From Marsupella aquatica (taxonomy: Eukaryota; Plantae; Marchantiophyta), in contig OZ316891.1 in the NCBI GenBank assembly GCA_973895155.1, forward strand, positions 14,911,037 to 14,975,036: a stretch of 64,000 nt of DNA, read 5' to 3'. The notes beneath the pieces were generated by a model. It worked only from the letters and a program-made list of their open reading frames with translations, was not told the DNA's origin and ran no database searches. This document shows positions 3,022 to 58,910 of this stretch, one piece after another; within the stretch, counting starts at the first letter, position 1; every line of letters starts with the position of its first letter. The position numbers were made by a program, and so were the translations under genes.

Positions 3022-3023
3022 AT

Positions 3024-12181: not shown

Positions 12182-12188
12182 CTTTGTG

Positions 12189-12959: not shown

Positions 12960-12980
12960 TGGATTGGGACCTTGAGAGTC

Positions 12981-15900: not shown

Positions 15901-16175
15901 AACAAGGGAGATGGAAGGATATTGACAGGAAAAAGAGGGTTTGTCAACTATGTGATAGCTCTAGTATAGAGAATGAATATCATGTATTCATTGCTTGCAA
16001 GTTTTATGAGGGGGTTAGGATGGCATCTCAAATCTTGGTGAAAGATTTGTATGCATTGTTTGGTCTGCCCCCTCAGCAACTTGGAAGATATATCTTTGCA
16101 GTGGATAGGGAAAGGAGAATAGGTTTGGAAAATCTTTCAGGGCTCTCTAGGTTCATAGTTTCTTTGAGGACATAG
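12981..16175 (+). pseudogene. LINE ORF2 (APE endonuclease + reverse transcriptase) with a single in-frame stop at 15420-15422
   Basis: APE motifs WNVSG, TETW, GDFNAR, TIDY, SSHLP; RT motifs QAGFR, VDFSKAFD, GVIQGCPLSPTLF, FADD, YKYLG; C-terminal CQLC..ENEYHVFIAC. The frame resumes after the TGA. Confidence 0.92.
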
Positions 16176-22335: not shown

Positions 22336-24135
22336 TTAGCTCCGATGTCGCTAACTCCGACGTCGAGCTCCTCTATGGTCCAAGCCCTCGGAACGGCCAT
22401 ACGGTGGTGACTAAGTATGGGGAGAATAGTGGGCAACGAGGTGTTGCATTAGCAAGGGCAAGACGCTAAGCTGATGACGCACACTAGGGACTTAAACTTA
22501 CTAGCTTTGGGTTGGTCGGGTCATGGGAAGGGGCTGGGCTCAGGGTGGACCGTTCGGACCCCCGGGTGGATTTGAGTTGTGAGAGCTTGAGTGAGAGCTC
22601 CTCTTGGGCCCAAGGTTAACAAAGTTTAGTTCATGCGCAAGGGACGTTTTGCGCATAAGTTATGGTGTTGGCCAAGGTGCAGCCGTCCGAGACCCCTGGG
22701 TGACGACAGGTTCTGAGAGCCTATGCATGAGCATTGGATCGGTCTGATCACAACGGGCTAAGGCACTCCATCTTCGGATGTCTAGCTACAAAGTTATGGG
22801 CATAGCAAGTTAGTTGCATGCCAATGCAATGTGTAGGTTGGAGTCCAGGTTAGGGCCCAAATATAGGGGACCCAAACCGGTCCGGGGGTGGCAGGTCTCC
22901 AAAAGCACATATGAAGGGAGTGATGTCTTCATGGGGGCCAAGGGCAAGCCCAAGTCGTGAGCCACGACGGTCGCGACACCAAGAGGAAACGTCAAATTGA
23001 AACGACAATAACTTCTCAACGGGAAGTCCGTTGGGGGACTCTTGGATACGTTGGAAAGCTCTTGAAGAGGACTAGTGCATCCTTCTGATCTCAATTGGGT
23101 CTAGGGGTGAAATGGATTCTTGTGTTTTGTGGGGGCTATCTTGCCTGCTTGCCAAATCTTGCCAGCTTGCCAAATCTTGCCAAAATAGCAACCAAGCCAC
23201 ATTCAATTTCCCACAGAAGCTTGCGTTGGGGAGGCAAAGCAAAGTAGATCTGGAGGTTGAGTTCTAAGTGCACTTGGCCCCTAGACTATCAGTTGAGTGG
23301 GAACCTTGGAGTTGGTTGCTAGAGTCACAGTCAATCTAGTCCTCGGGGGCCTCAATGCAAGGGGTGTCCCTATGTCACGTGCAAAGTTTTGGGGGAATAA
23401 ACACCCTAAAACTTAAGTCAATAAAGGTTTTATTTACCCCTAACTTAATGGAATATTTCCAATTTTGATTTAAAAAAACTCTATGATTCTTACAATTCTC
23501 GAAATTGGATTAAAATAACCCTAATGTTCTTCAACAAAAATTTAAAAGTATTTCACTAAACCCAATTAAAAACCCTACACTTATTTGCGTGTGATGGGTT
23601 GGAAGAAAAGAAGTGAAGACCCCGGGATCTAGTCTCGACGTTGTAAGACAAGCTTTCGGACAAGCTAAGCTATTGGGCCATGAGCATGTCTTGGGGGCAA
23701 GGCGATTAGCCAATGACGGATAGAAAGTGGGGAGGCACGGGCAACACCCAAAGAGGTGTTGTTCTAGACAAACAATGGGTGTTGGCTCTGGCTTTGACTT
23801 ATGGCAAGGCCATGCGGGCCCGGGAGGTTCTATTTGCTGAGCTTGAGTTCTCTTTACCAATGTTTGTTGAGCTTGAGTTAGGATGCTAGTCTTGGAGAGT
23901 CTAGATCCTACGGGTTACTTACTGAGGTGTTTGGTTGTTTGTGCAGACAATGATGATCGATGTGCGACGGTCGTGTTAGGGAGCAAGTGCGACTTTGTAT
24001 GGGAGTTGTCGCTGGAGGTGCAATAGGTACCTAAGTGCTTGCTCCATGAGTTCTGTGTAGGCGTTCGGACATCAGGGGCACTTAGGGGAGGGTGTTAGGA
24101 TTGGTGAGAGCACTGGTTGGCAAGGTCCACCACTG
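22300..24135 (-). repeat. Non-coding dispersed repeat, copy B (inverted relative to 1047-2462)
   Basis: Its reverse complement aligns co-linearly, though diverged, with 1047-2435; it contains a MITE insertion. Confidence 0.75.
23342..23626. mobile_element. 285-bp MITE with 8-bp TSD
   Basis: TSD ATCTAGTC at 23334-23341 and 23627-23634; imperfect TIR CTCGGGGGCCTCAAT/AGTGAAGACCCCGGG; interior resembles 38636-38932 (ACCCTAATGTTCTT). Confidence 0.88.
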
Positions 24136-24817: not shown

Positions 24818-26453
24818 TAGAGTTATAAACATAGGTGTAATCTTAAACCATGGTTAATCCTCTTTGAATGTGCTGGCATCTTACAAAATGGGGACTGATT
24901 TGAGCTTGTGCTCAGCTTTGTACTGAAAAATACATGGTTAATCACAATAATCTACCAAAGGTGGGAGTGACTTAACCATAGTTGAAATTAGTGGCAAAGA
25001 GAAGCAAGACCTTGATATGTGCATGTTGTTGACAATGTTAGGATTTACTCTTAGGTCTAGAGTTACGACTGTACCATAGTTAAGGCTAACCTTAGTCGCT
25101 GACATGGTTAGGTTAGTCATGTTGTGCACACTCTATAAGCAAGCAGTGTTTGCTTGGAGAGATGGAACTCGGGCTCATTCTTACGGAGCTAGTTGAGAGA
25201 TAGAGAGAGCTTGTGCTGTGGATGTTTGGTATGGCCGGTCGGCCTAGAGTGCAGTAAAGCTCTTGTGTGTTCCCGTGGACGTAGCCTCATGAGGAGGTGA
25301 ACCACATATCTCTTTGTGTCGACTATTGTGGGCTAGATGATTCATGGGCTTGCCGTTGCAATCGTCGTCGATACTTAACAATTGGTATCAGAGCATGTCT
25401 GGGAGGTGACGAGGTCTTTTTTGTGACGGTTTTTCCAGCGTTCATTGTCGGTGTTACATTTGGAGTTTTGTCGCATGAAACTCGAATGTGTGTGGTTGAA
25501 CGAATAGATTAGTGAGAGGGCTTTCTAACGGTGGTTAGAACTTGCTGATCGGTATCCGTGGTGTGGAGGAATCAAAGTTTGTGTCAATCTGGAGTTTTTT
25601 CGTGTTCGATGGTATTTTGGGGGAGAAACTAGAGATCGTTTTTTCAACGGTTTGAGTTGTGCGGTGCGGGAGGCATCGCATGTTATAGCTCATGTTGGAC
25701 GTTAAAGCGAGCTGTTCATTTTGGTAGTTGAGTTGCTGTCGAGTGGTTACCGAGTGCGTCATGACGAGTGAAGGAGACGTTCAGATTTTTTCACAGGCTA
25801 TGGAGCTTGTTCTCATCTGAACCGGGTTAATCGTCGTCACGTCCAACTTGGAGGAAGAAACGCGAAGTGCTACGGCTCAATGTTTTGATCGCGGCAAGGC
25901 GGTCATTTTGAGTCCGAGATTGGCACTTGACGTGGAGTGAGTATGACACGACGGAAGATTTTTTCTCTGCTGAGCTCACAGATTGTGTCGGTGCAATTCG
26001 GCAACATTTCCCCGTCGGCGGTCATCATTTTTACTCGTGGAATTGGCGGCAACAAGCAACGTTGGATGTTGGCAAATTGTGTTTCCTACGGCAACTTAGC
26101 GCACCGCGGAGAGGTGAGGTGCGGCGACGACCTAGGGCACAAGGAAAAGACAAAGTTAGTGAACAGTAACTTTGTCCAGGAATTGCGGCAGGATTTTCAT
26201 AGCAACAGGGTTTCTAGGGAGACCCGGAGTGACCAGAGGGAGCCTCGCTCCAAGGGCGCCCCTAGGGCACCTCACTCCAAGAGCGACCCAAAGTGACTAG
26301 GGGGACCAAAATTTGTATAACTTTTCCGTCGAAGTTTGTTTTTGATTTTGGTTTTCAGTCTTGGACTCCTAGCCTCATGGGCTACGCGGCAATGATTAGT
26401 TTTGAGTTTTTTGAGAAGTTGTGAAAAACATTGTTTTTTTGTGATTTTCTCAT

Positions 26454-29400
26454 ATGAGTGATTCAGAGGAGATTTTCGAAGACGTGGAACTTGAAGCACG
26501 AGGATCACCGCAGCGGTTTGTGGTGGAGAGAGAGGAGCAGGAGGAAGAGCACGTGACACCGATACCATCACCTGTGCGACGAGTGGTGGAGGAAGCAGTT
26601 CTTCTACCGGAGCTCACGGTAGTGCCAAAGAAGAAGATGGATACGTTCAAGCTTGGGAGACCCAAGTATGAAGTGACAAAGTATGATGGGCGCTCTGACT
26701 ACTTGCTTTGGGAGAAGCAGGTGAAGGGAGTGCTCTATGCGTCAGGGATGGGCCAACTATTGAGCCCTCGTGAAGACGATGTTGATGAGAAACAATGGGA
26801 TCGCATGCAGGAGCAGGGAGTGTGGTGTGTTACACTCTATCTCATGCCTCCCATCATCAAGCAGTTGGGTGCACATAAGGATTGCATGTCCTTGTTTGCG
26901 GAATTGCAGAGCAAGTATCACCGCAAGTAGTTGTCAAACCGGCTCTATACTTCCTACAAACTGATGAGTTTCAAGATGAAGAAATCTGGTACGAAGTTGT
27001 AGGACCATGTGGATGTTTTCAACGACATGGTCATTGACTTGGAAAACCTTGGGGAGACTTTGAATGATGAGACGAAGGCTCTGCAGCTTCTCAGTTCATT
27101 GCCTCCATCTTACCAATCCCTATCATGGATGTTGTTGTATCGTGATAGGGATACCATTTCATACAATGACGTGGTAAGTTCTCTGCTTAGTGATGATCTT
27201 CAGCAAAAGATGCACATCACGTCACAACCTTCATCCTCTGGTGCTGCCCTCATTGTTAACCATGGGAGGAGTATGCAGCGACCAACTGGGGAGCGTAGAA
27301 CCCAGTTTAGATCTAAATCCAGATCTAAGTCCAGAGGTAAATCCCCTCAGAGAAGGCAGGTGACATGTTGGAAGTGCAACCAGGTTGGACACTTCAAGCG
27401 AGACTGTAAGGGAAAGGTAGCTAAATCTTCATCGACAAATGTGGCTAGGGCTGATGGAGATGCTGATTTACTCAATGATGAGTATGTATTATGAAGCCAA
27501 GGGTATGCTCTATGCACGTTATCTAGGAGAGCAAATGATGTGTGGATTCTTGATTGTGCTTGCTCTTTTCACATTTGTTACATTCGAGAGTTTTTCAGTT
27601 CTTACTCTGTTTCAAACGCTTCAGTTCTGATGGGAAATGATCACTTCTGTCAAATTGAGGGTATTGGGTCTATGAAGATTCAAATGTTTGATGACACTAT
27701 GCGCACAGTGTCCGGAGTCAAGTATGTACTTGGCATGCGTAAGAATCTGATTTCACTTGGTGTGTTGGATTCAAATGGTCATCAATGGAGCATTATTGAT
27801 GGTGAACTTCAAGTCAGGTCGGGAGAGACAATGATCTTGAAGGGGAGCAGACAGAAGAATTTGTATGTGTTGTAGGGCAATACTGTATATGGAGAGGCCA
27901 ATGTAACCAAGTCTCACGAGGAGATGACTAATCTGTGGCATTCACGGCTAGGCCACATGAGTGAGAAGGGTTTGGCTATCTTACGGAAGAATGGACTCAT
28001 TTCTAATTTGCAATCTTGTAAATTAGAGTTCTGTGAGCATTGCATTCTTGGAAAGCAGCATCGTCGTGCTTTTGGTGTTGGAACTCATCGTTCCAAAGCG
28101 GTTCTTGAGTACATACATAGTGACGTGTGGGGTCCATCCCCGACTCCCTCACACTCTGGAAATTTGTACTATGTATCATTTATTGACGATTACTCAAGAT
28201 TTGTGTGGATTTATTTCATGACGCATAAGTCTGATGTCTTATCCATTTTTAAGAAGTGGAAGGCCCAGATGGAGAATCAGACTAGAAACACGGTTAAGTA
28301 TTTGGATACAAGGGTGAAGAGTCTGAGGTCTGACAACGGTGGGGAGTACACTTCAGTGGAATTTCAAGAGTATTCTTCAGAACAGGGGATAACTTGCCAT
28401 CTCACCACAGTTTATACTCCACAGCAGAATGGTGTCGCTGAGAGGCTTAATCATACACTGTTGGAGCGGTCACAGAGTATGTTGAGCCAATCAGGTTTAC
28501 CACAAGAATTTTGGGCAGAGGAAGTGATGCATATGCTCTCACACCAAAGCAAAATAGGACCAAGTTGGATCCTACCTCCAAGAAATATGTTTTTCTTGGG
28601 TACCAGAGTGGTGTGAAAGCCTATAGGCTATGGGATCCTATTGCCTGTAAGCTCGTTGTCAGTAGGGATGTTTCCTTCAATGAATCTAGATTATTGAAGG
28701 AGGGGGAGAATACTCAGATCTCCCGTACTGACAAAGGAAAATCTCCTATCCTGGATCTCGTTGAGGGGGAGATTGGTCATGAGGTCCATGACCGGAGAGA
28801 AGAAGTTGCTCCAAATATGGAGTTGGTTCCTGTGCCAGAGGAACCAGAGGAGTTTGTTGATGCTGGTGAACAGCAAGTGGATGCTACTGAGCTTCAGATT
28901 GTACCAGCACACATGGATCAACCAGAGTCATCGGCTAGAAGAACATCTGGTCGCACTGTACGCGCTCCACCAAGGTATGGACAGTGGGTTGATTCATCTC
29001 AATTGCAAGAGGAGGTTTTGTTACTGACGATGAGGGTGATGGGTTGATTTTGGAAGAAGGGGAACCTTCTTCATTTCATGAGGCAAGTGCTTCTAAGGAG
29101 AAGCAGGAGTGGACTGCAACAATGCAAACGGAGATGCAGTCACTGAAGTACAACAAAACTTGGGAGCTTGTCAAGCTGCCTGAGGGACAGCAAGTGGTGG
29201 ACAACAAGTGGATATACAAGCTAAAGGATCAATTCACGGGAGGTGGATCGAAGGTCTACAAGGCTAGGTTGGTAGCCAAGGGATTCACACAGAAAAAAAA
29301 TGTGTGGATTACAATGAGGTCTTCTCACCAGTTGTTAAGTACTCAACAATACGGCTATTGTGTGTGCTTGTTGTAATGTTTGATCTGTTGCTAGATCAGA

Positions 29401-30530
29401 TGGATGTTGTCACAGCCTTCCTCTATGGCACCTTGGAAGAGGTGATCTTCATGAGACAGCCGCTAGGTTTTGTGAAGAGAGGGCAAGAGGATTTGGTTTG
29501 TAGATTGCTGAGATCCTTGTACGAGTTGAAGCAGTCACCAAGACAGTGGAATAAGCGGTTTGATGATTGGATTCGTGCACAAGGCTTTCACAGGAGTGTG
29601 TTTGACCCATGTGTGTATCTGAAACCGGTGAAGAATGTTGTCTTTGGGTTCATTGTTTTAGTACTTTATGTGGATGACATGCTTATTGCGGCCAAGGACA
29701 GGTCTGAGATTGTTAAGCTCAAGGCACTACTAAGTGCAGAGTTTAAGATGAAGAACTTAGGGCCAGCTAAGAGGATTTTGGGTATGGAGATCACTAGGGA
29801 CTTGGAGGCTGGCAAGCTATGGTTGACGCAGAGCAGTTATGCGATGAAGGTAATCGCAAGGTTCAACATGGGGGATAGCAAGCCAGTAAGTACCCCGTTG
29901 GCTCCACACTTCAAGTTGTCATCAGCATTCTGTCCTACGGATGAGACAGAGAAGGGGCTGATGTCAAAGGTTTCTTATGACAAGACAGTGGGGAGTCTCA
30001 TGTATTTGATGACCTACACTAGACCTGATCTTGCCATGGCTATGGGCAAGGTGAGTAGGTACATGTCGAATCGATGCTGACTATGCACAGGATCTGGATC
30101 GAAGGAGGTCAACAACAGGTTATGTGTTCACACTAGGAGGTGGATGCATAAGTTGGAGATCTACTCTACAGAAGTGTATTGCCAGTCTACTACAGAAGCG
30201 GAGTATGTTGCAGCAACGGAAGCATCAAAGGAAGCAATTTGGTTGGATAGACTTATCACTAAGATGGGATTGCCACAGGGGAATGTGAAGCTCCATTGTG
30301 ATAGTGAGAGTGCACTCCACCTTGCTGTGAACCAGGTGATGGATAGCAGAGTGAAGCACATCGACGTCAGGTACCATTTTATCAGGCAGGCTGTGTCTGA
30401 TAATATGTTTGAGCTAGTCAAGATTGACGGTAAATTCAACCCGGTTGACGCATTTACCAAAGTGATTCCTTTGGAGAGTTTTTCTAGACACCGTGATGCG
30501 TTGCAGGTTTTGCAATTGCCTCACAAGTAG
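26454..30530 (+). pseudogene. Copia gag-pol polyprotein, disrupted
   Basis: Same motifs as copy 1 (CWKC Zn knuckle, WILDC, RSDNGGEY, YTPQQNGVAER, YVDD, KHIDVRYH), with stops, frameshifts and deletions near 28520 and 30071. Confidence 0.95.
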
Positions 30531-30720
30531 GGTTACTTAATATTTGTGTAGATACTGAGATATGCTCTTGCTCATTCCTTGTATAGGCTACGGCTTAGTT
30601 CTGGTCTACTCTCGTATAAAGAGGGAAAAACCCTTTTGGTTTTTCTTTCTAGAACTTCCCGCTGAGCAATCATATTGGTAGCAGTCTTTACCCTCTCCTA
30701 GACTAGAGTCAAGGGGGAGA

Positions 30721-30818
30721 TTGTTAGGATTTACTCTTAGGTCTAGAGTTACGATTGTACCATAGTTAATTGTTGGGATTTACTCTTAGGTCTAGAGTTA
30801 CGATTGTACCATAGTTAA
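30721..30818 (+). repeat. 49-bp tandem duplication of the start of the Copia-2 3' LTR
   Basis: 30721-30769 and 30770-30818 differ by one base. Confidence 0.92.
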
Positions 30819-31982
30819 GGCTAATCTTAGTCGCTGACATGGTTAGGTTAGTCATGTTGTGCACACTCTATAAGCAAGCAGTGTTTGCTTGGAGAGATGG
30901 AACTCAGGCTCATTCTTACGGAGCTAGTTGAGAGATAGAGAGAGCTTGTGCTGTGGATGCCTGGTATGGCCGGTGGGCCTAGAGTGCAGTAAAGCTCTTG
31001 TGTGTTCCTGTGGACATAGCCTCATGATCGAGGAGGTGAACCACGTATCTCTCTGTGTCGACTATTGTGCGTTGGATGATTCACGGGCTTGCCGTTGCGA
31101 TCGTCGTTGATACTTAACAGACAGTAGATGGCTTGATGCATATAATGAGGGTGCAGTGTGCTAAACCCCTTTAATGCACACTTTAAGGCAGCTAGGGAAA
31201 CCCAACTAATACAAATCATTTAACTTATGTTTACTTAGGTACAGTAAAATGGGCATGTTAGGGGTTTCTGCTAAATAAGAGGTTTAGGGTGCACTCCCAC
31301 CCACACTTAGGATTAGAATAACTGGGAGTAAAGTATCATGATTTTTAGAAAATTAGCTTTACAAAACTTGACTATTCCCTAAGTCTTCCAACTGTATTTT
31401 TGGCCTAACTTGTTTCCTACCCCCCAGATCAAGTTTTTTGGTCCTTTTGATAGGGTGAAAAGTTTCAAACAGTTATTGTCAATTCTGTCAGTCAGAATTT
31501 ACTGCTTGATAGCTCTCATGCCTATCCTCCTTTGATACTTCCCACCATAGCAATGGCCTCCAAGAGAAAATTCAGCTGATCATCTGAATTTCTTTTGCTT
31601 GCTTGGAGGAGGTTTTCTGCCGTGACAGGAAACAGTAACAGGAAACAGGAAATGGTAACAGTAAAATAAGTGAGGAAATTTACACAATATTTGCGACATC
31701 CATCAATAAAAAGGGTGTATAAAAATGCCGAGTATATTAGTAGCGCCTGGCGCTACTTTAAAATGTGTGTTACATGGTAGCAAAAACACAAAGCCCGATG
31801 ACAATACAAAATCTTAAGAGATACCATGAGCAGAAAAATGGCTAAAGAATTGGGATGTAGTAAGCTTGCAAGAAAACATGGAGAACCGAGACTACAACCT
31901 AACACCTTCAATCTCCGATGGCGGTAGCGCCAGGCGCTACTATCGCAAAAGTCTTTAAGAAGACTCCATCTTTCAAACAATC

Positions 31983-32453
31983 TCAGGACGTCGATGAATG
32001 ACACTCATCATCGACTCCCGCATTGAAGCGATCCTCGTCTCGGCGAAATCCATCCTCTCGCTCAACAAAAAAACGCAGTCCTAGAAGGCGACTCCTCAGC
32101 CTGCAATTTGGAATGTTGGAGTCAGAAAATCCAACTCGCCCGGTCCATTGTTGAATGCCCCTAAAAAACGCCGTCCATCCAACCCTATAGACATCGGAAG
32201 GATCCAGATCGTGAATAGAGAACCGTTCTCTAAAAGACCGGGGAGGAGACGAATCAGGGCATGATTCTGGTTTTGCTCGAAGGCTTATCCCCTCGTCCAA
32301 GGCCAGCCATAGTCGATTCCTCTCCATTGAGGTGACAGGGTGAGGAGTCTCATCAATCGGGACCTCTGAGGCAAGCAAATCAATTGAAGCTTTGCCTTCC
32401 AACTTTGTGGGGCCGGAAGTTCTCTCACACAAGACTTGCTTTCCTTTCTCCAT
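31983..32453 (-). CDS. Putative accessory ORF of the MULE (156 aa, unknown function)
   Basis: ATG-initiated ORF inside the element, on the same strand as the ParB-MTase gene; no recognisable domain. Confidence 0.35.
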   Translation of the reverse strand: MEKGKQVLCERTSGPTKLEGKASIDLLASEVPIDETPHPVTSMERNRLWLALDEGISLRAKPESCPDSSPPRSFRERFSIHDLDPSDVYRVGWTAFFRGIQQWTGRVGFSDSNIPNCRLRSRLLGLRFFVEREDGFRRDEDRFNAGVDDECHSSTS

Positions 32454-32855
32454 GGTCTCTGGATCAATGTCTATGCCGCGCTAAACGCAAAAGAGCTCCT
32501 GGAAATCCTCGAACATCGGCGATGTCAAACGGAGAGGGTGTAAAATAGAAGAGGGTGTCGAAATACCTACCGTTGCGAAGGAATTCAACCTAGGGAAACA
32601 GGTATGTATGGTAGTCAAGGTCATTAAGGATTTTCATCGTACATCAGTACATGTACTTGCAGTTTGGAAAACATTACACTACACTTCACATCAGAAAAAG
32701 ATATGCGGAAGCTAATACCTTTCCCACTTTGTATTTATATAAAATTGATGCGTACAATAAGTAGCGCCTGACGCTACTATTTTGGAGGAGGTAATATGTT
32801 TTAAAATCATGAATATATAACTAATCTAATTTAAACTAACCTAATCCAATGTAAT

Positions 32856-33168
32856 CTAATCTCCAGATTCCGACTCACTACTCTCCGATCTATCCGTACT
32901 CTCTGCTTCATCGTCGATAAATTCATTTCGTTCCATATCATCGACAAATGGATGACGGATGAACTTTCTATCCAAACCACGTCTCAATCGCAAGCCCTTA
33001 TTCTCCCAGGTCAGGGTTCTTCTACTCTCTTCTTTGCGAGCGGCATACTCTGCGTATGAAGGCAATACAAATGGTTTCTCAAGGGTAATTAGGACTTTGC
33101 TTGAAAATTTCCTTCACAGATTGAACCTCTCGCGAAGATTCCACTCTGACCTACGAGTCAGTTGAAAC
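32856..33168 (-). pseudogene. Possible small accessory ORF or exon with an acidic C-terminus
   Basis: Frame reads FQLTRRSEWNLRERFNL*RKFSSK...LPSYAEY...EFIDDEAESTDRSESSESESGD, with one internal TGA. Confidence 0.3.
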
Positions 33169-33258
33169 ACTAAGTACACTTCGAGAGATTCCAGTAATTC
33201 AAGTATGCAAGATAAAAAGAAAACGGAAAGTTAAGTAATGTAAAGGAGCTTACGGGCA

Positions 33259-36200
33259 TTACTCAGAAGAATCTGAATCTTCCGTTTCTCCTTCTGAATT
33301 CCCCTCATCCTTTTTCTCTCCTTCTTTCTGGACATCAATCCCGGCCTCTTCATCAGCTACATCGTCTTCCTCTTCTTCGGAATCAAAATTCAGAACAGAT
33401 CAAACTTTATCTTTCACTTTTTTCTCCATGTCTTTGCTCGGACCAGCCTCACTCAATTCTTTCGGGAGGAGCAAGTCAGTGTATGTCCTCTCTGCAATAG
33501 AAACAAATTCCTTGCGATTCTCAATCCCAAGGATGAAACGGCCACAAAAATCACCAGCCACAAATGTACTTCCTGACCCAACCGTCCAGTCCATAATAAT
33601 ATCTCCCGGACGAGAAATTAACTCCAGGACAGACTGCATGAAGCCAACCGGTAGTCGTGCATTCCCTGCAAATGCAGCTTCTTGAACAGGATCCTTCTTT
33701 AGAGTCTGCAGCCCAATGAGGTTTGTGATTGAAGGGTCCTCGGTTGAAGACAAAGGCTTGAACTTTGAATATTTGGGGACCCTAACCTTCGATGTAACTC
33801 GACTAAAGATATCAAGTCTTAAGGTGAAAACCTGGAAAATAAACAGTATTCAATATGAGATTTGGTAACATATATTAATAGCGTCTGGCGCTACCCAAAA
33901 GACCCTGTGTACACGAGGACATTTACATGTGAACATCAAACATGAAATGAGATCTATTAATAGCGCCAAGCGCTAGCAAATGATTCTCTTGATTCAAAAG
34001 GACAATTACCTAACAATCGCTTTTGGCCATGTACATTGGGGCACCCATAACAACGTTGAGCGTTTTGAGGCACTGGAACTTTTGGGAATCTTGGCTGGCC
34101 GAAATTACTTGGGAGATCTGGTCATACTCCCCAGTGTGCAAAACTGCTAACAACCCATCATCGGCAAGAAATGGGTCCATTGCCCGAAAGAAAGAGCCAA
34201 CCATTCGGTGATCCGGTACATTCCACTTTGGCGATTTTTGGTGAAGCAAAGAAGGTCGTAGACCTGTCGGTAGGTAGACAAAACCCGCATCCACCCCAAA
34301 AGATCTCAACTTGCCTCCCCTAACTACCCCTTTCTCCCGGAGACCAAGTGTCACTAAGTCTTTTCCCCACTTCTCGACATTCGTCACCCACCTGGGTTTA
34401 GTCTCTTTTGTAAAAATAGAATCAAAAAAGTCCATTAGACTGGACTCAACAAACATATGACGGCAAACTTTGGACTTGAATTGACCAACTTCTCGTTGGA
34501 TGCCAGTACATGCATACGAATCTCTAGAAGAAGAACCGAGATCAAGAGTTTTCTTCTTCTTTTTTCTGGTGCTTGTGGCATCAACCGGACGATCAATGTT
34601 GGTATTTGCAGGAGGAGTCTGCTCTTGGGTAGCATCGGCAGCCTCAGTGTTTGCTTCAGATTGATCAGGGGTAATGGTCGTCTTTGCATCTTGAGTTTCT
34701 TCTCCCTCTGATTTCCTACCCCCTGTAGAGAATCGAAAAGGTAAGAACACTGGGAAAACTATAACAGCGCCCGGCGCTAGCCAAACATTTACTTTCTAAA
34801 TTCTCGTGTATGAGTATACATTTAATAGTTTAAAGTAGCGCTTGGCGCTAACCAAAATCAATGCAAACAACTAAGTGAATTTCAGAGGAAAAGATCAAGA
34901 AGAATTGCAAAAAGTCATATAACTTACGTTTTCTTCCGGATCTCGTGGACGGGCTATTCAATCCTGTATCAACTTTTACTTTTGCGCAAGGTCTTCGGCT
35001 CCTGTCAACATGTAAGACTTCAGTCTCACATATTTTTTGAAGCTCCACTGCAGAAGCTTCAACGTCTCCCACCAATCCTTCCTTCATCTCAGACAACCAT
35101 TTCCGAGGAACTAAAGATTTGGACAATTTCAAAAAGGCATCTTTCTCAGATTCATCAAAAGGTGTATCCCACTTATCAGTATCGAGGTACTAGGGACAGT
35201 TTGTTCGCTCCCAAACAGAAATGTCACGTGGAGGATTGGCTCTTTCTGCAGGATACATCGAGTAAACCTCACTGAAATCATCCCCATCCATGACCGACCA
35301 CCTCTGGAATGCAGGAGGATAAGCCCAAAAATATTCAGGAGAATTGCTCTCCATGGACAAGAAGAACCAATAAAGGTATCTCTTTGCCCGCTTCTGGTTT
35401 CGGGAAGAAAAATCTTCTTTCTCCCCGTACTTTGACGCCCACATTGTGTTAAAAAACTTTGCCTTGACTGTATCTCCATAACTTTTGAAATCATTGCAAA
35501 TCGTCTGCACTAAAGCATCAAAAGTTTCTACACCTCCTGTGACAAGTCGTTCCGGAGGCATGACAGATTGAACTTGTCTGAGAGCAGTCTGCATCATCCC
35601 CATTGAAATTCCTTCGATCCAACTCCACATGTGCAAAGTGTGACACCATTGTTTAACTGGTTCGTCATTCACACTCGGCGGATGGAAAAATTGCTTGCGA
35701 AGTTCGGGCGTGCAATGCGCCACAAGAAGAGTGGAATGCAACTTTGGGTCCAAAGCTGAGACGGCAGTAAAGAGACGAGAACGATCCATCGTGCAAACCA
35801 CAGCGTCTACTTTCCGTTCTCACTTGTTTTTCTCTGTCAGCGTGTACATTTCCGCACATGTTGACAGAAAATCTTCGAATTTGGGGCTAAGGAGTGGAGT
35901 GATCTTTGAGGTCTTCACGCTCCATTCTTTTGTGGCCTCCTTCATCATTGTCGCATGACACTTGGTGACCTCCTCCTTTGACCACGGCCTCCCTTGAGTG
36001 TTTGCAGTCGCCATGTCCAATTTGAATTGCATAGAGTATGACTTGATCTTGTTCTCGCACAAGATGTACACAAGGGCCTCCAAAGGCATCTTCTTCATAT
36101 ACCAAGAGCCTTTCCTTGTCTTTGCGCGAATTGCCTCAAAGCATTTGAAGTTTCTGGCGTCAATTATCGTCTTGTAATAATCAAGGTCATGGGACAGAAT

Positions 36201-37056
36201 TTGACTAATTCTGTCAGCATCGAGGATCCACGACGGTTCTACAACGGCTTGCCCCAATCTGTATACAACCATTTGTTAGCGCCAGACGCTAACCAAAATC
36301 CCACAATTGAAAATTTGTCCAAATCAAAGAAAATGACCAAACTTACTGATTGACAGTGTGCATGGCGGCTTCAATCTCAATAAGAGAACCTCGATCTCCC
36401 TTGAACACAGTGCATAGCACACAAGGGTGGTACTTGATATTTTCGGGGTTCTCTTTTATTACCTGCGACCAGGAATATAGACGATGATTCCCGTTGAACA
36501 CACAAAACATCTTATCTTTTAAGACAAGGAAATCTGGATCTGCTTCACAGTCCGCTTCAAATTTCTCATTCTGGACAGTCCAGACAGCATCCAAACTCTT
36601 GCGGATTTTGGGGGTACAAAATTGGATGACGCCTTTAGAAACAGCGGGTTGCACGTAGAATCGCATCGCAATGGAGGAGTTGTAACCGGAACTGCGAAAT
36701 GATTCTTTTAGCTTCTCGATTGAAGCGCTCTCCTTCTGGAGAGTCCAAACAACTTCCATATTGACCAGGCGACAAAGCGGTATACGCGGAGGGTCCTTGG
36801 GCTCTCCTCTGAAATTAGTGTCGAGCGACATTGCATGTTTGGCAATCACATCTCCCATCGCTAGCGACCCTTCACACCCGTCTTCCATGATGAAATCACT
36901 CGAATTCTCCATGACACCTCGTCTCTGCGTTGGGAAAGTCTGCGCAGAGTTCCGAAGAGAATGCGATGTAGTCGAGCGAGTAACGCGTCGTGTGTAAATA
37001 GAACCAGCGAACGATGTCTCCGATGTTTGAGAATTACCTGGGGAAGTGTTGTCCAT
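33259..37056 (-). pseudogene. ParB/Srx-like domain + beta-class N4C/N6A DNA methyltransferase-like fusion; ~1108 aa in 4 exons (37056-36347, 36258-34928, 34722-34010, 33831-33259), with 4 premature stops
   Basis: All three GT-AG introns preserve frame (3327 nt in total). ParB-like FCVFNGNHRLYSW at ~36470-36505. MTase motif IV-like VDAGFVYLPTG..W..FFRAMDPFLADDGLLAV precedes motif X/I PVGFMQSVLELISRPGDIIMDWTVGSGSTFVAG..GRFILGIE, which is the beta-class order. In-frame stops at 35820, 35190, 34010 and 33400; acidic tail. Confidence 0.82.
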
Positions 37057-37484
37057 CTCGGGATAAAGAGTCTTTGGCCCTAAAATTTGGAGAGTTCTCA
37101 GCCACTCACAAAGGCCTGCAACGTACTGTTGCAACCAAATAGATACGACCCACGTCCGAAACAGCCAGTATGGAGACCGTTTTCCTGCAACAGAATGACA
37201 CGACAGCAAGATCAGATTTGTCAAATTGACCTTTGACAGGAAAAAGATCCCAAAAAGGCCGACAGCTGACTTAAATATGAATGTTCCATGATGAAAAATA
37301 TCAGGTAATCGAGCAATCGAACCAAAGAGAAAGGGACAGTTGGCATATAGTACTGACGTGGCTACTCAAATGTAACAAAAAATCTCATAATTAACATTCA
37401 TTCAAGAGGTAAAAATGGTCACACAGGCATAAAGTTACCATTACAAATATCCGTTGGACAGACAACTCGGAGGATAAACATTAA

Positions 37485-37912
37485 TAGCGCCCGGCGCTAT
37501 CATAAACATCACTCCTTCTAGACCAAAAAGTACACATATTTTCTTTTGAGTCGACCCTGAAATACTAGTAATCCACTGAGTTTCAATAATAGCGCCCGAC
37601 GCTATTATTGATTGTTGTCTAACATTCATAAAATCTTTCAAATGTTCCATCATATACATCAGAATCTCTTGTTTTTTCATTTTCCGCAATAATAGCGCCA
37701 GGCGCTATCAATGGAGAGTATCAAACAAAGTCATGTTTTGCATAATTCTGATTTTAAATTTCACGCTTTTGAACGATGATCTGGTAGGGTTTTTGCTAGC
37801 GCTTGGCGCTATTATTCTCCGTTGTGAAAATGTCCGTTAAATTAACAGAAACATTTTGTTTTCAACGGTCATCCGTCGCCATTTATCTCAAATTTATCCG
37901 TTGAGTTAACGG
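37485..37912. promoter_or_regulatory. Putative bidirectional promoter region: four phased palindromes plus an AACGG/CCGTT cluster
   Basis: Palindrome spacings of 105, 103 and 104 bp; five AACGG/CCGTT motifs in 37819-37912; lies between ATG 37056 (-) and ATG 38029 (+). Confidence 0.5.
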
Positions 37913-38028
37913 TAAAGTTCTAAATATTTTTTGCGTTTGAGTGTGGTTTCTTCGTTCTTGATGATTTACTTGAGGGAAATAATAAACCGAGGCTGGAAAC
38001 ACCCTTACCATTTTTTCATTCTGTCAGA

Positions 38029-41000
38029 ATGTCACGGGTTATTAGGGTAAAATGTCCTGAAACGGGAGACGTGATTAGCGTTCCTGTGACTTACGGAGAT
38101 GGTAATCAGCGTGTGAGCGAAGATTATCTTTGCGGAAGGTTTGATGTTAGGAGGAAAGACATTGAAAGCTTAGGGACAGCTGCCAAGGGGGTAGTGAATT
38201 CTTTTTACATTTTTGGTCAAAAATGGTGGGAACTGCACTGCGGTGTCGAGTACACGCTTTTCCTCCGAGGAAAAGTAGTGAAACTAGAGACGGTGGATGC
38301 ACCAACAGAGGTCATTGATCTCACGTCTGATGGCGATGACTCTTCCCCTGTCTCTCAATTGCCGATTGACATTAGGAACATCAAGCGTGAAGAGTGTCAG
38401 TTGTTGAAGAATTCATTTCCAATGCATCAACGTAGTACCTCAACGGAAGACAGTGGAGGTGACAAGCTTCTTAAATCTCCTTCTCTTGCTATAGTTTACA
38501 GAAGGAGCGCATTTGACGCCCTTCTGAAATTGACTGGTCAAAGTGAGCTATCTCGATTTGTACAATCAGAAACTTTCAAGCACGAGCAAGTAGAATTTCT
38601 TCCCAAAACTTACAACGGCAATGTCATATTTGAGCCTCGGGGGTCTCACTATATAGGGACCTCCCCATCGCCTGCGACGTTTTGAAGCCTAGGACCCCCT
38701 AAAATGTAAGAATTTTTAAAAAAAAATTAACCCCTATAAAGTTGGAATATTCTTGGAATATTCTAAAAAATGGATTAAAAAGACCCTAATGTTCTTATAA
38801 GTCTCAAAATTGAATTTAAAAGACCCTATTGTTCTTCTACAAAAATTCTTAAGTCTTCCCTTAGAACCAATAAAATGACCCTATCCTTCGTCGCACGTGA
38901 TATGCCATTTTTGTGGAAGTGAAACCCCCGAGATTTGAGCTTCCGCCTGTCAATTGTGTGGGTTCAAAGGGGAAGCATCTCCTTAACATGGACCGTTTGA
39001 AGGATTGCTATCTCTGGACTTGAATTATTCCTACTTCTGCAAATGTTTTGCCGAAGAAGATGTGGGGGTTTGGTAAAGTCAGTTGTAGCGGATCACTTGA
39101 ATGCCAAAACAAATCATGCAAGTTTTATACCAAAACAAATGGTAGGAATTGTAGCTCCTGGGAAGGGACCCCCAAGTTGGGAGGCCAACATTGTCCAGGA
39201 AAGTTGATTGATTCAGGAGGGATTGTTTGTCGGTATTGTCTTCAACTTCCATTCTGTTTGGACTCCTGTTCCACAAAAATGTTTTACATGTACCCACAAG
39301 TTCTCCTGGATTTGGCGACAACGCAACATATGTCACACCTTGCAGTACATATGGGTGTCCATAACCATCCGTGTCGAAAGGTCTGGTCTAGAAGTTCGAA
39401 GATGATAGCGGTCGAAGAGATTCGGAAAGAGCATTTGAAAAATGCGATCACTGGATCTCTTAAGGATGCACTAGATGAATCTATCGATGACATCTCGAAG
39501 ATGGAAGAGAGTGAGATTTGGCAATCACTTATGCTTGTTTCGACTCCGCAGAAGTTCTCTGCCTTGTTTAAGAGTGTCCGGAAAGATCAGGCCGGGCGAG
39601 GAGACCTCGAATATCTGGTTCGGATGCAGAAGAATGTCAGGTTCCCGTTTGTTCAAAGGTATCTACTTCCAGGGCAAGGCTCTAAGGAGGACCGAGCTCA
39701 TATTTTCAAAATGATGATCAAAGGGCATGGATCCGGAGTCGATTTGTTGCGACAGATGAAAAAGGGTGGACCCCTCGAAGGTGCGTGGGTGAGTTTTGAT
39801 GTCATGAAACGAATGTCAAAAGATTGGAGTACTTTTAGCGCCCATGTTTATGACCATAACTATCGAGCTTTATGTACAATATTTACGTGTGAGCTGAAAG
39901 CGGAGGACACTGAATCTCTCGAGAAAGCATGGAGATTAATGATTGAGGTCGCTTTAGAAAATGGGGTAGATGATGTTCAAATTCATGGATTCATGGCTGA
40001 TAATGCTCAGTCAGGGAGGCGTGCGGTCAGAAACGTTTTCTTTGGGGGCCATCCAAATCCGGAGAAAGAGAGATCGGATGCTTTTCATTTTTACCAATCT
40101 TTGCACCGCCATTCTATCGAAGGAGTGCTTGAAGACAAACGTTTTGAGCATCGCCTCCTCTGGGATAAGCTCAGAAATGCATCAACGTTTGTCAAAGCTT
40201 ACAGGATTTCCCGAGAAATTGATTTGTGGTGGAGATCTGGCATGGCAATTGCATTCCCGGGAAGCTTCGGATGCTGCAGGGATGGATCTCTTGGTGGGTT
40301 GTAAGATGGCAACAATGGGGAAATTTTATTCGACTTGTAAGTATCACCATTTTTGACTTATTGAATAGACACTTCCATACTAGCGCCTGACGCTATTATT
40401 AACACCTTCTTTTTCTTGATTCTCTCAGCGTTTTGGTCAGCGCCTGGCGCTACCTTTAATTGATACATATTGTTGAAGAATATCAACTTATCTTCCAAAA
40501 GTAGATTTTGAGATTTGACAAACTCTGGCCGTCCTGCAGAGCAAAAGTGCACAAGAAGGAGGGATGATTCCTAATTGCACTGGATCTGAGGCAGTTCATG
40601 GTATCATGAAAGCTTGGCAAGGGAAGAAAACTATCGGATTATTTGAGGGTTGTAAAATTGACCACAATCGTGCAATCTCTCAAATTGCTGCTTATACTGC
40701 CTATTGGGATGGGTTACATAGAGGAACAGGTCCTACGGTATTTGAACTAGCTTTCCGTTCAGCGGACCTGGCTGGATCCCCTCAATTGTTCGAAGAGGCT
40801 TCTAATTTGCTACTAGCTAATGCGGCTGAATTTGATTTGGAGAGGAGTACTCCATTGAACGGTGATTTTGTAACCAAATCTATCAAAAGAAAAGGTCCAG
40901 CGATAGGGAATGTCTCGGCACAAGACTCCCATCGTCATGACACCATTCTGATAACAACACCGAATACACGGGGTTTGAAACGGAGAAATCTGAACTCGGC

Positions 41001-42051
41001 TCAGTTTTCTCATATTCCACCAAGTGTTCCTGAGACACCGATCGATTTGACTGGGAGTGAGGACCTGAGTGACTTGCCGGACGCATCTGCTTCTGGTCCA
41101 GGTGAAGAATTTTCCACATTACCAGAAGTCTCTCAAATGGACCAAACTCCAGTCCTCCCTGACACGTCGCTTTTGGAGTCGGACGTTGAACCTGGGTCTT
41201 GGCATCTTCGTCGAATTTCAAGACTTGGGCCTGGTCCTCAGTGTAACGGGACATTGTCAAGTAGATGCGATCGTGATGAGTGTCGAAACCGGATTAAGAA
41301 GGTTGGATATCCTTCTAATGCTGGAGTGATCGAAATTGTTGCGAAGGGACATCGCGTGTTCAGGAGTGAACCCATGCCGAGTTCGTGTGGTTTTGCCCCA
41401 ACGGCAGTTGTTGGAAAAGCCGCCCACATCGAGGCATCACTAACCTGCCTCCTTATCATTTTCCTTGCCAGTACTAACAGGAACACATTTGTCAAACTTG
41501 GAGTTATGTTTCCTGGAAGAACAGGGTGTTGCAATCTTCAGACAACACCACCAAAGCATGCCTGCCAACCCTACGCCTTTTGACTTGAGAATCAATATTG
41601 ATGTTTTTCCTGAGAAGATCAATATGGCACAAATCAACATCCGTGTTCAAACTAGGAATGGGCGCCCAATGAACCCCAGATCAAATCTTACTCAGGAATA
41701 CCATAGAAGGATCGAATCTGCTGCGAAGGAAACAATGACTCTTATCACAGAATTGGATGTTTCCTCGGGGAACTCATATGGGAAACGATTACTATCCAAA
41801 CACACGCTCATCTAAGGACGGCAAACACTTATTGGGTGCAGATTTGCGTATTCCCTTGTTGCTCTTGTGAGGACTTCTTTCGCTGACATTCTCGAGGAAG
41901 ACCTTTCATGCCTTGTAAACATTTGTACTGGGTTTACAAAACAATCTTCAAGCTTGATCCATTGGATTCGGTCTTACCAAGCCAGCCAATTTTGATTGTT
42001 GGAGAACTCCAGTACATCATAGGAAGGAGGAATTCGCATGGTTTAGAATAA
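38029..42051 (+). pseudogene. MULE-family transposase (GCM/WRKY-like Zn domain, DDE core, SWIM finger), disrupted by a MITE, stops and frameshifts; intron 40337-40539
   Basis: CSGSLECQNKSC...CRYC...C...HMGVHNHP; D1 in WVSFDV; D2 in GFMADNAQ..AVRNVF..DAFH (CxxH position); WISWWVVRW; E in CTGSEAVHGIMK; SWIM CSCEDF...PCKHLYWV at ~41856-41935. Removing the MITE restores the frame (IFELPPV). Confidence 0.85.
38636..38932. mobile_element. 297-bp MITE with 8-bp TSD, inserted in the transposase gene
   Basis: TSD ATTTGAGC at 38628-38635 and 38933-38940; TIR CTCGGGGGTCTCACT/AGTGAAACCCCCGAG (14/15 match). Confidence 0.93.
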
Positions 42052-42439
42052 TTCTTTTCAGTCTACTAGACGTTGAACGGGCATTTTTGGGTTGCCGTTT
42101 TTAACGGTAACAAATATTTTGTTAGCGGTCGGCGCTAGTAAAAGGCTGGCATTTTGTAATGTTGTTTTATCTGGCAACAAGTATTGGAGTCTCAAATCTT
42201 CCCAAATATCTTGAGTTTTGCTAGTGTTCATTTGGGAGAGATGACTCCAAGCAAGCATCAAGACATTTGATAGCTTTGTTGGGACCAATTGAAAACTCTG
42301 AAAACTGCAATCTCTACAGTGGAAAGTGCACATGTCATCGATGGCATACATGGTCCTTTCCATCAATGGCCCTTTGTAGAGGTTCTTCAGAATTTGATTT
42401 CCAGCCAATCTATTACTATAATACCCTATACTGCCAAAA

Positions 42440-44495
42440 ATGTCCATCAACAAATCCCGGATCATTCCTCTCTATCTCAATGGGGGAATTTATCCCGACT
42501 GGCTCAATGATACGGGCTGCCGAATCTCGGAGACAGGTGAAATCACTGAATACCTGGGATGCCCAATTGGGTACAACATCCGCCCTTCTCACAAAAACAA
42601 CTTCCTTCTAGGGAAAGTGAGAAAGCGATTGTTCCACTGGAACAATAGATGTCTTACTGTGGCTGGAAGGGCAATCCTACTGAAACATGTTCTGAGAGTG
42701 ATCACGACTTATCACCTCATGATACTTGAACTCCAAACAGCTGGATATCTTGACCTTGAAAAACTTTGTAGACGATTCTTGTGGGGAACCTCTCTTGAAA
42801 GGGGGCACAAAAAGGCTCTCATAGCCTGGCAGGAGATTGCAACACCTAAAGGAAGCGGAGACTAGGAATCTTACCTTTCAAAGACCAGGCCCAGGCACTG
42901 AAGATGAGACACGTCTCCAAGCTGATCAGTGGGGACAGTAGAGAGTGGGTGACCATTGGAAACGACATCATCAAAAAGGCACTGAAACGAGGAGCGAGAA
43001 TAAAAGAGAAGCGGTGGTGGACACCCACTGACACAATTTTACTAAGCACTGAGCTATGTGTGAAAGGCTCTCCCACTCTGAAGACGCTGCTCAAAGGGTG
43101 GTTTGAAAACAACCAGCGCCTGAAATTCAACTTTGGTTCTGGTAAGCTGTCATCCCATTTATCTATTGAGCACACCCTCCTACTGTATTCTAGGAATAAC
43201 CAGGTTAGTGACCAGGAAGGTACTTTGCTCAGGAGATACCTTTCATCCAGGGGGATCCGTAAGGTGATTGACCTGTGGTCGCAACAACACGGTTGGAGCG
43301 AAGGTGAAGCCATTAACAACAGTGAGAGTAAGGAGCAATAGACCTAACGGCCTTGAAGCCTTCACTAGATTCTACGACCTGCTTAAACAGTCTACGGGAC
43401 TGGGTGAACATAACCTGTCGGAAAGCACTGAATGGCAATGGGATTGGAAGGCGAAGGACAGAGGTTGGACTTTCCCCAACAAAACCTGGGTTAACTGCTC
43501 CCTTCCCCTTTCACAAGATGTTACCAAACTTAACCGGAGATGGGGGGGACAGAATTGCACATTGGACTGATGGAGACTATACTGGAAGCAACTTTATGGT
43601 GGCATGACTTTACCGAAGGTCAGGTTCTTCATTTGGCGGCTAATCAACCACTGCTTCTTCACAAATGGGAGAGGCAGCTATTGGAAGGTCTGCAATGGAA
43701 TGTGCAACAGATGCAAATTGGGATTTGAAAATACTGACCACCTTTTCTTTAGCTGCAGCAAAGTTTGCAAGAGGTGGAGAGAAATACAATGTTTGATGCA
43801 GGGTTCTTTTACCTTCTCCATAGGGTACACGTCACTCTTTGACACTATCCATAACGCTTTTCAGAATCAAAAAAGGAAATCGGGTACTATGGTTCTCCTG
43901 ATGGAACTTTGTAATAGCATCTGGAAAGAGCGAAATGCTGCCACTTATTCTCACTTCTTAGGTCGTCTCCCCGGATGGTGACACTTTGGTACACTGAAGC
44001 TTCCTTGAAGGCTATGATTGACCTGTGTCACTCCCCGAGGAAACACAGACAAATTCAGGAAGCCCTTGAACAGGTGCAGAATGTTCTTAAACCTTGGGAA
44101 CAGACTGACAGCCCGGTTTCACTCAACCCCACCAATGATGATGATGAAGCATGCAACATAACAGCCAATTGCAGGCTAGGAAAGACTCAAACTTGTGAAG
44201 GTCCTTGGGCACATGAAGTGGACTGAACATATTTGGAGTGGGCCTATTAGCCAGAGTGAAGTTGGTAGATTTGAGATTACTCAGGACACTAGGAGAAAAT
44301 ATCAGAATTATCCCTATAGGGGAATGAGTAGATGGGACTTGGATACGGACACCCTGAGGAGGATGCTCCGGGACCCTTGGTTGGACTAGATTTCTGGCGT
44401 TTTTCTGGCTGTTTGTCGCCGCTGGCCCCGACTTGTGCTTTCTGGGTGGTCTTTGCTCCCGCGGTGCTTTTTCCCATGTGTGGGGGAAAAAAAAC
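42440..44495 (+). mobile_element. 5'-truncated, frameshifted L1-clade LINE (RT C-terminus + zf-RVT)
   Basis: EYLGCPIG, RLFHWNNRCLTVAGRAILLKHVL, RRFLWG, IAWQEIATPK..GLGI, PKVRFFIWR, CNRC..ENTDHLFFSC; A-rich tail at ~44487. Confidence 0.88.
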
Positions 44496-47864: not shown

Positions 47865-48210
47865 GATGTTCGTCGCAGTATTATATTGCTGTCCCTGATA
47901 TCTGCTGTATGGATGTCGTAGAGGTGGGTGAACTTCTGCTGCTGCGGGTGCTCGGCCGATCGAAATTGTCGTGAGTTGGATCATTCGATTTCAGCCTCGC
48001 TTGCTGGCTTGGCTTGCGGGATTGAGTGAAAGGTCGAGTGCTCGACATCTTTCGTTCCTTCGTTTGAGAAGCGGATTCCGGACGGTGGGTCGCTTCTGTT
48101 GTGCATGTGGTCTGCCCCGCTTGTTCTTCTTCTTGCCCAAGACCCACCGACTTTCCGGATCATCGCTGGTGGTCGTGCCCGTGCGGAAGGCCCTAGCGTC
48201 GTCGTTCAGA

Positions 48211-55832: not shown

Positions 55833-57232
55833 TGAAAATATGCAGGCGGTTGGCAGGTAAAAGAAAGTAATGCACACTCATATATTAAGACTATTATTAA
55901 ACATATCATTTTTTGAAGTAAAATAGTGTACTAAAAGTGGAAATAAATAATGTTTTGGAATTTGCTGGTACAGTTAACTGCTAACTGTTTGACCTACAGA
56001 AGGAAAATATGCAAGTTTTCCACAAGAAAAAACATTTTATGGCCTACTTTAGAAATACACAATGATAACAGCAAAAAGCAACACTGTTAAGAAAAGAATA
56101 CACTGGAACAATGGGGAATGCAACATGTAGAGGGGGGCACCTGAGATGTTCAAGATCTGGCCCAGCCCACATTAATGTCCTGCTCAGGCCTCCATTGTCT
56201 TCTATCCATAGACAACCTTAACCTTGAGATTTTGTTCTCCAATGGCTTAGGGAAGTTGGTACATCCAAATCTCTACATACCTGAGAGGATTCCTTTATGC
56301 AGCAGATGGTCAGGACCAAACCACATCTTCTCCTTGATTCTAAATTTCTCATAAAGTTGTCGATGTCACTTCCCAATTTTGGTCAGGATCGAACCAAATT
56401 GTCTCCCTAACATTGGTAAAAAGACTATACACATTTCCAATCTTTGAACAGGTATGGGGCTAGGCATGGTTTCCAATCTCCATAGTGGTCAATGCCAATT
56501 GTAGACTAATATGGGTGAATGTACGATAGCACCCGCTTTTGTCGATCCCAGGTGTAAGACAACAAGGTAACCAGCTTGACCGATTCAGGCTCTAGCATGG
56601 TGTGTCTGTTGTGGTTGGGGCTGACCAAGTGGAGCTCTACTACTCTACTGCAGTAGTGACTAGGTACTACTCTACAGCGGTAGTAATTAGGTTAATGCAA
56701 AAAACAATAATTAAGTATTTTAGGCGCCCAGTCCAATGAAGTGATACCCCCACAATAGTAAGCTACCCTTTTGGGGAAATTGCGTGGAAATTCCCGGTGA
56801 AATTCAATTCTTGACATAACAGCTTGATTTTTTGTTAAGACCAGATGCCAGAACTAAAACAAGGAGGACAGTGAGATCCACTCCATTGCCATCTGTTTTG
56901 TTGAATTGTGTTTATTGTTGTATTATTATGTTGCCACCTTTTTCCACAGCTGGTTGAGTATAGTCATCCTTGTTAGCTTGGAATGATCCAACAATCAGCG
57001 TTGGACAATCCTCACCATACTCCAATTAACCTGAAAACCCTTGCCTGCCCTTGACCAAGGGGGCCAAGGGAGTGGGCCTGGGCAACGAACTAGGAGGGGC
57101 CTGGAGCACAATAAGAGATCCAACCTAAGAGTGTTAAACCTACAGTAGAATACATGGATGACCAAGTCATGGTGAGTGTCATATTGTTTCAAGTTAACTA
57201 TAGTTACTTTGCTTTAACCAGCAGTGGAAAAA

Positions 57233-58888: not shown

Positions 58889-58910
58889 GAAAACACAAAA
58901 CACGTGGCAA

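Follow-up and report, generated by a model that had tools for sequence, protein, structure and literature searches.

A candidate palindrome-binding pseudo-methyltransferase gene in a likely Mutator-like element of the liverwort Marsupella aquatica

Results

A multi-copy element with two divergent genes

The DNA analysed here (the window) is a stretch of 64,000 nucleotides of contig OZ316891.1 of M. aquatica. Its central part contains an element extending approximately from 31630 to 42200, in which a methyltransferase-like gene on the minus strand stands head-to-head with a transposase-like gene on the plus strand. In four runs, diverged contigs were found over 31625-42000. The 11-kb stretch was matched by 3,517 to 9,077 contigs per run, most of them less than 95% alike, and all 30 bins were covered. 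Unlike these diverged contigs, those matching the flank at 31054-31669 were single and identical. The element is dispersed and multi-copy. The proposal of the first-pass annotation that the methyltransferase is borne by a transposable element was supported, the multi-copy stretch of 31.6-42 kb containing a transposase-like gene.

The transposase gene (37924-41815, plus strand) is interrupted by an insertion and carries a frameshift near 40240. A high-copy, MITE-like insertion of about 305 bp was located at 38628-38932 by a depth spike and by joints skipping 305 nt in all four runs. When the transposase was compared with the ESM Atlas, the best matches were MULE (score 0.91, on only 139 shared features), and the best 10 matches having a family (10/10) belonged to MULE or its clan. 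Nineteen relatives, at 29-60%, share the aspartates of FD(V/H) and MAD(N/S) and a D/CxxH motif. The Pfam MULE model gave no match in the ORFs of the window or in 16 transposase relatives. Judged from these comparisons, the transposase is likely to be Mutator-like; its pairing with the accessory gene is known from the window locus alone.

No terminal inverted repeats were detected by blastn-short, and a target duplication and the exact ends were not found. The right end of the element is hidden because a LINE relic, corresponding to the decayed 3' part of such an element (42422-43978), abuts there. The presumed left end has a short tandem motif of 13 bp (31628-31679), and a hairpin with 39-bp arms is situated just to the left of the element (31163-31267).

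The observed/expected CpG ratios of the two genes of the element were 0.77 and 0.75, versus 0.12-0.46 in four neighbouring retroelements; a host exon gave 0.61. The milder CpG depletion of the element is in line with the reading favoured below, though it may also be explained by its age. The commonest changes among its copies are C>T together with G>A, which indicates that the family does suffer deamination.

Other repeats are present in the window. Two decayed Copia LTR retrotransposons of one family, 90-97% alike in their coding parts, are found at 4500-9324 and 25034-31119, and further LTR copies near 2460-3230 and 57230-58890. A LINE with long open pieces of ORF1 and ORF2 (12078-16172), strongly depleted in CpG (0.12), is preceded by a 181-bp tandem repeat (11279-12179). 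A long diverged inverted repeat (1048-2122 and 22723-24134, 71-86%, about 21-23 kb apart) probably represents two opposite copies of one repeat. Host sequences are also present: a bHLH transcription-factor exon on the minus strand (18021-18800; Pfam HLH, E 3.9e-5) and ORF pieces resembling host gene exons at 47932-48384 and 62947-63693.

Structure of the methyltransferase-like gene

Four exons were predicted on the minus strand, which by exon arithmetic sum to about 1,060-1,110 amino acids; the splice sites are predictions from the sequence, and the end of exon 4 was taken as 33400 (TGA) or as 33260. Exon 1 (36347-37056), an open reading frame with a GTAAG donor at 36346, encodes a ParB-like domain (IPLCRL...NGNHRL...AAMHTVN); its start codon is uncertain, a candidate Met lying at 37056, and it is 31% identical to protein P0103 of Riccia (E 1e-25). 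Exon 2 (34928-36258) encodes a large helical domain, and exon 3 (34010-34722) a low-complexity linker followed by the N-terminal half of the methyltransferase domain. This domain is interrupted by a predicted GT-AG intron of 178 nt (33832-34009), which contains two palindromes; the gene models from Riccia are also split at this point. Exon 4 (33260-33831) carries the motif I region, the GIE and the TGA at 33402-33400, with an acidic tail beyond it.

The window copy is a pseudogene with at least three in-frame stops. Two of them, private to this copy, are situated in exon 2 (TGA at 35822-35820 and TAG at 35192-35190), where sister copies read Arg and Trp codons. The third, a TAG at the end of exon 3 (34012-34010), stands directly ahead of the intron donor, and the relative P0132 has Gln at this place. 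On the 3' side of the gene, further ORF pieces on the minus strand (33113-32856 and 32480-31983, within 31983-33113) gave no informative Pfam match and are possibly a third gene of the element.

The motifs of exon 1 are collinear with those of ParB domains apart from an insert of about 50 residues. When the exon 1 family was compared with 10 phage ParB domains by HHalign, the local alignment covered 36 columns at an E-value of 0.0036 and scored above all 40 column shuffles; the global alignment gave 0.11, and 1 of 40 shuffles was as high. A Pfam search with this domain gave no match, and tblastn of the exon against phages returned just two records, at E 1. A model of the ParB-like and helical parts, for which a Riccia protein served as stand-in, gave no fold match with E<=0.001 when searched against PDB and BFVD, the highest Z being 5.9, and the helical domain of exon 2 had no clear fold match with the same stand-in. 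Two rows obtained with this model, a SopB DNA-binding domain (Z 5.0, 92 aligned) and a 'chromosome partitioning protein' (E 0.46), were within the noise and were rejected. From its motifs and the local profile alignment, the N-terminal domain is probably ParB-like.

The methyltransferase domain and its motif IV

The SAM-binding half of the domain, which the first-pass annotation had described as well formed, was recognised by database searches. The motif I region, SRPGDIIMDWTVGSGST, is encoded at 33615-33565 (minus strand), and GRFILGIE ends at 33520. Exon 4 matched positions 163-220 of Pfam N6_N4_Mtase (E 7.7e-9; score 36.3, above the curated cut-off of 26.7), and in PDB the SAM-binding exon matched the beta-class enzymes M1.HpyAVI, CcrM and MboIIA (E 4e-4 to 9e-3). 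In the window copy, DWTVGSGST (33591-33565) is present and strand 2 is followed by the acidic residue (GIE); Thr occupies the Phe position of the DxFxGxG motif I.

The sequence VDAGFVYLPTG is encoded at 34294-34262 (minus strand), with YLPT (34276-34265) standing where D/S/N-P-P-Y is expected; the catalytic (D/S/N)-P-P-(Y/F/W) is absent from the window copy. The two halves are in different frames, with the predicted GT-AG intron between them, and motif IV is N-terminal to motif I, as in the beta class (PF01555). The motif IV half alone gave no meaningful match in Pfam, PHROG or PDB, and its register was therefore taken from the relatives. DAGFV-YLPTG aligned to DCLYL-DLPTG of the Riccia proteins, the family profile in turn placed DLPTG on the DLPYG of a cyanophage enzyme, and no alignment put motif IV elsewhere. 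On these alignments, VDAGFVYLPTG is identified as motif IV of a beta-class amino-methyltransferase domain, at the position proposed earlier.

The fold was examined on an AlphaFold (AF2) model of Riccia P0104, taken as a stand-in for the window protein. The confidence of this model is low (mean pLDDT 50.9, rising to about 70 in the half with motif IV). Foldseek matched it to CcrM at E 5.9e-8, the comparison with MboIIA gave Z 11.6 (rmsd 3.6, 163 aligned), and the top seven fold matches were all beta-class DNA methyltransferases; the rotifer N4CMT was also among the matches (Z 9.4). A permuted Rossmann methyltransferase fold is present in this low-confidence stand-in model. Together with the profile alignments, these fold matches agree with the beta-class fold and motif order originally assigned.

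Relatives and erosion of the catalytic motif

When exon 2 was searched against 1.84 billion representatives, 99 relatives were found at E<=0.001. Thirty representatives were looked up (20 from the exon 2 or methyltransferase search, eight transposases and two further ones), and those with an organism name all belonged to one of two liverworts, Riccia sorocarpa and Calypogeia fissa. P0103 of Riccia (1207 aa) contains the three parts of the window gene in the same order. A word-limited search with the methyltransferase profile returned 25 Riccia proteins and one contig protein, with no Marchantia protein among these 26 matches. Exon 4 alone, used as query among longer proteins, gave 0 homologous proteins in 363 candidates. 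A metagenome scan yielded 26 pattern matches, which reduced to one locus of 1,053 bp, too short for synteny. The UniRef label 'trimethylguanosine synthase' carried by Riccia members was rejected, as Pfam and the fold indicate PF01555.

The family alignment comprised 35 rows, of which 26 span motif IV. Position 1 of the motif is D in 23 rows, Y in two and S in one; a single Riccia genome supplies all the rows with Asp, and the Ser row is from Calypogeia. None of the 26 rows has an aromatic residue at position 4, and none reads xPPY. In the Riccia rows covering motif I, DxxGGxx is found in place of GSG (21/21). By this alignment, the YLPT subfamily to which the window copy belongs has lost the catalytic Asp as well as the aromatic residue.

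Five viral enzymes were compared with the family profile. The cyanophage methyltransferase P0140 aligned end to end over 191 columns (HHalign E-values of 1.8e-6 and 9.1e-8 with two alignments), as did a Mollivirus enzyme with DPPFG over 199 columns; the other three aligned near motif I only, among them a phage enzyme with TSPPY (57 columns). The history of the motif may have run from a phage or bacterial enzyme of the DLPYG type to DLPT/DMPS, with loss of the aromatic residue (Riccia type), and then to YLPT, with loss of the Asp too.

Selection on YLPT across copies

Motif IV was inspected across copies in a region of 131 bp around it, in 75 contigs at least 80% alike to the window. These sister copies come from four public runs, representing at most four samples and two studies, one of which may be the source of the window itself. 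Among the 26 variants listed, 20 are synonymous, versus 31% expected (p 1.7e-6). Within the YLPT codons, six of the seven listed variants are silent and the remaining one, found in a single contig, changes Thr to Ile. In none of these contigs is the Tyr codon altered at its first two bases, and none regains an aromatic residue at position 4. Furthermore, P0132 keeps YLPTG; with respect to the window, its methyltransferase half is identical at 101 of 129 residues (78%) and its linker at 48 of 103 (47%). This pattern of variants indicates that YLPTG is maintained across copies by purifying selection.

Palindromes in the element

A 15-bp palindrome, TAGCGCnnnGCGCTA, has 15 matches in the 64-kb window versus 0.45 expected, and all of them fall between 31741 and 42137. 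By pattern match, the sites are at 31741, 31925, 32762, 33879, 33961, 34765, 34836, 36277, 37485, 37590, 37693, 37797, 40381, 40438 and 42123. None of the 15 lies in the assigned coding intervals, though these cover 71% of the element; the site at 42123 is inside an open frame of 137 codons that was not counted as a gene. In the methyltransferase gene, each of the three introns contains one or two sites, and the promoter shared by the two genes contains four, spaced by 105, 103 and 104 bp.

Discussion

A probable pseudo-enzyme that may bind the palindromes of its own element

In the known enzymes, the target amine is held by the first residue of motif IV together with a Pro carbonyl, and the Tyr provides the ring that stacks against the flipped base (PMC10406627, PMC3814359); D164A and SPPY-to-APPA mutations abolished activity. 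Since YLPT has neither the amine-bonding residue nor the stacking ring, N4C/N6A transfer is predicted not to occur, and proteins of the window type are quite probably devoid of this activity. The main point against inactivity is the intact SAM motif of the YLPT subfamily.

The reading that we favour, with a probability of roughly 0.55, is that the gene encodes a catalytically dead accessory protein of a likely Mutator-like transposon, which binds the palindromes of the element. Among the choices offered by the first-pass annotation, the inactive reader is the most likely. Intact copies would encode a pseudo-enzyme with a methyltransferase fold that binds the TAGCGCnnnGCGCTA sites; recognition of the site, with its twofold symmetry, would fall to the ParB-like and helical parts, and the methyltransferase fold would serve for DNA binding or dimerisation, perhaps with SAM still bound. 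By occupying the introns and the shared promoter, the protein could protect the element from methylation by the host or help to assemble the transposition complex. By analogy with VANC in VANDAL, the accessory protein might keep the element transcribed or active. Against this reading counts the good SAM site (DWTVGSGST, GIE), which is unexpected if SAM is irrelevant.

A bolder version, which we regard as doubtful, is that the pseudo-methyltransferase, of phage type and repurposed in Mutator-like transposons of land plants, is a VANC-like, sequence-specific anti-silencing reader, covering or flipping cytosines while leaving them unmethylated, and so blocking host 5mC; its targets would be the palindromes, rich in CG and CHG, of the promoter and of each intron.

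Alternative explanations

A different possibility, unlikely in our estimation, is that the protein is an active methyltransferase with a remodelled site, which binds SAM and acts on an unusual target (a protein, RNA or a non-canonical base position), the new Tyr or another aromatic residue doing the stacking. The YLPT subfamily has kept motif I and the acidic residue that follows strand 2, the Riccia members retain the Asp, and in RlmJ a Trp outside motif IV stands in for the stacking Tyr (PMC3814359). On the other hand, the better SAM motif occurs without the Asp and the Asp with a changed SAM motif, and position 1 is variable, a pattern that fits relaxed chemistry. The purifying selection on YLPTG counts in favour of an active enzyme but is equally compatible with a structural role.

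It is also conceivable, if rather improbable, that the enzyme is dead and its role unrelated to the palindromes, these being binding sites of the transposase. The transposase of AtMu1 is reported to need no accessory protein for binding and activating its own elements (bioRxiv 10.64898/2026.08.24.746577); in addition, the transposase relatives possess a Cys/His-rich N-terminal region, and the ParB evidence for the accessory protein is weak. However, the palindromes are scattered through introns and promoter and not at the ends of the element, and red-algal transposons are described as pairing inverted-repeat arrays with ParB-like accessory genes (bioRxiv 10.1101/2025.02.11.637652).

The first-pass annotation had further suggested that such copies were the vehicle through which N4C/N6A methyltransferases entered early land plants, and by extension that this transposon family brought active N4C enzymes such as MpDN4MT1 into liverworts. 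The fold class and the plant group are the same, the rotifer N4CMT is among the fold matches, and carriage on a transposon would help the spread. Nevertheless, this idea is so far unsupported and appears very improbable: MpDN4MT1a/b carry TSPPY and no extra domains, versus 0 of 26 xPPY in the family; the TSPPY phage enzyme aligns around motif I only, when the DLPYG and DPPFG viral enzymes align end to end; and the word-limited profile search retrieved no Marchantia protein among its 26 matches.

Finally, the idea that a canonical motif decayed at random to YLPT in this copy, which is indeed a pseudogene with at least three premature stops and a broken transposase, is hardly tenable and, for copies at least 80% alike, already refuted by the sequence comparisons, given the excess of synonymous variants (20/26), the silent changes in the YLPT codons (6/7), the unchanged first two bases of the Tyr codon and the YLPTG of P0132.

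Comparison with known systems

The architecture combining ParB-like and methyltransferase parts is already known from reports on Ectocarpus Sola1-1 and on Bostrychia. Sola1-1_Ec32 carries, opposite its transposase, a gene for a 1104-aa protein with a ParB-like and an N4C/N6A methyltransferase domain, and similar genes are cited there from green and red algae (PMC12477816). The window protein is alike in its size of about 1,100 aa, its amino-methyltransferase part, preceded by a probably ParB-like one, and its strand opposite the transposase. The Ectocarpus protein was predicted to be active and was suggested to act on its own element by binding and modifying it (PMC12477816). Unlike it, the window gene is from a land plant, is linked to a likely Mutator-like and not a Sola element, and has an eroded catalytic motif; the two are likened here by architecture.

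In Bostrychia, the transposon-borne Plavaka genes PAG2 and PAG3 likewise carry PF01555 and ParB-like domains; inverted-repeat arrays of Plavaka were proposed as binding sites, and homologs are described on Chondrus Mutator elements (bioRxiv 10.1101/2025.02.11.637652). These are separate genes (methylase with SET; ParB with 2OG oxygenase), whereas the window gene is fused, and the Plavaka repeats form tandem arrays, whereas the window palindromes are dispersed in introns.

VANC binds motifs in the non-coding DNA of VANDAL (PMC5735166), and the window gene resembles it as the accessory gene of a likely Mutator-like element that has short motifs concentrated in non-coding DNA. The analogy would be one of function: there is no sign of homology, and the VANC motifs are asymmetric 9-mers in tandem, in contrast to the 15-bp palindromes found here.

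With the bacterial and phage enzymes CcrM, M1.HpyAVI, MboIIA and cyanophage AIX44018, the window protein shares the order of motif IV before motif I, the motif I region and, judged from the Riccia stand-in, the fold. It differs from beta-class PF01555 enzymes by a family motif IV of YLPT or D(L/M)P(T/S), by predicted spliceosomal introns and by about 800 extra N-terminal residues. A bacterial-type beta-class fold in a eukaryote is also found in MpDN4MT1a/b of Marchantia and N4CMT of bdelloid rotifers. These are active host enzymes with SPPY, where the window gene has YLPT (bioRxiv 10.1101/2021.02.12.428880, PMC8885841, PMC10406627); MpDN4MT1 is described without extra domains, and the window gene has helical and probably ParB-like parts. 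The N6A-methyltransferase domains of DIRS1 retrotransposons, predicted to be inactive in all copies, are a precedent for inactive domains of this kind carried by transposons, but belong to a PCIF1-like group within a retroelement polyprotein (PMC4738411).

A literature search returned no paper on the land-plant family. As far as this search shows, what is new here is the land-plant, likely Mutator-linked and motif-eroded form of this accessory gene. The algal genes are assumed to methylate their own element. In the land-plant branch, the stepwise loss of a catalytic motif that is still under selection suggests that binding, and not marking, is what has been conserved. With a candidate site and relatives in transformable plant groups, the question of binding is testable. 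PF01555 matches in liverwort genomes are no evidence of 4mC or 6mA writers.

Concerning the origin of the methyltransferase, a direct descent from phage ParB-methyltransferase fusions found no support, as the alignment of the two AcaML1 fusions is confined to 56-57 columns near motif I. A tentative lead is entry into plants from giant viruses: the Mollivirus enzyme whose end-to-end alignment with the family is described above is a giant-virus beta methyltransferase encoded in record BTJB01000001.1 (L002:2027-2851).
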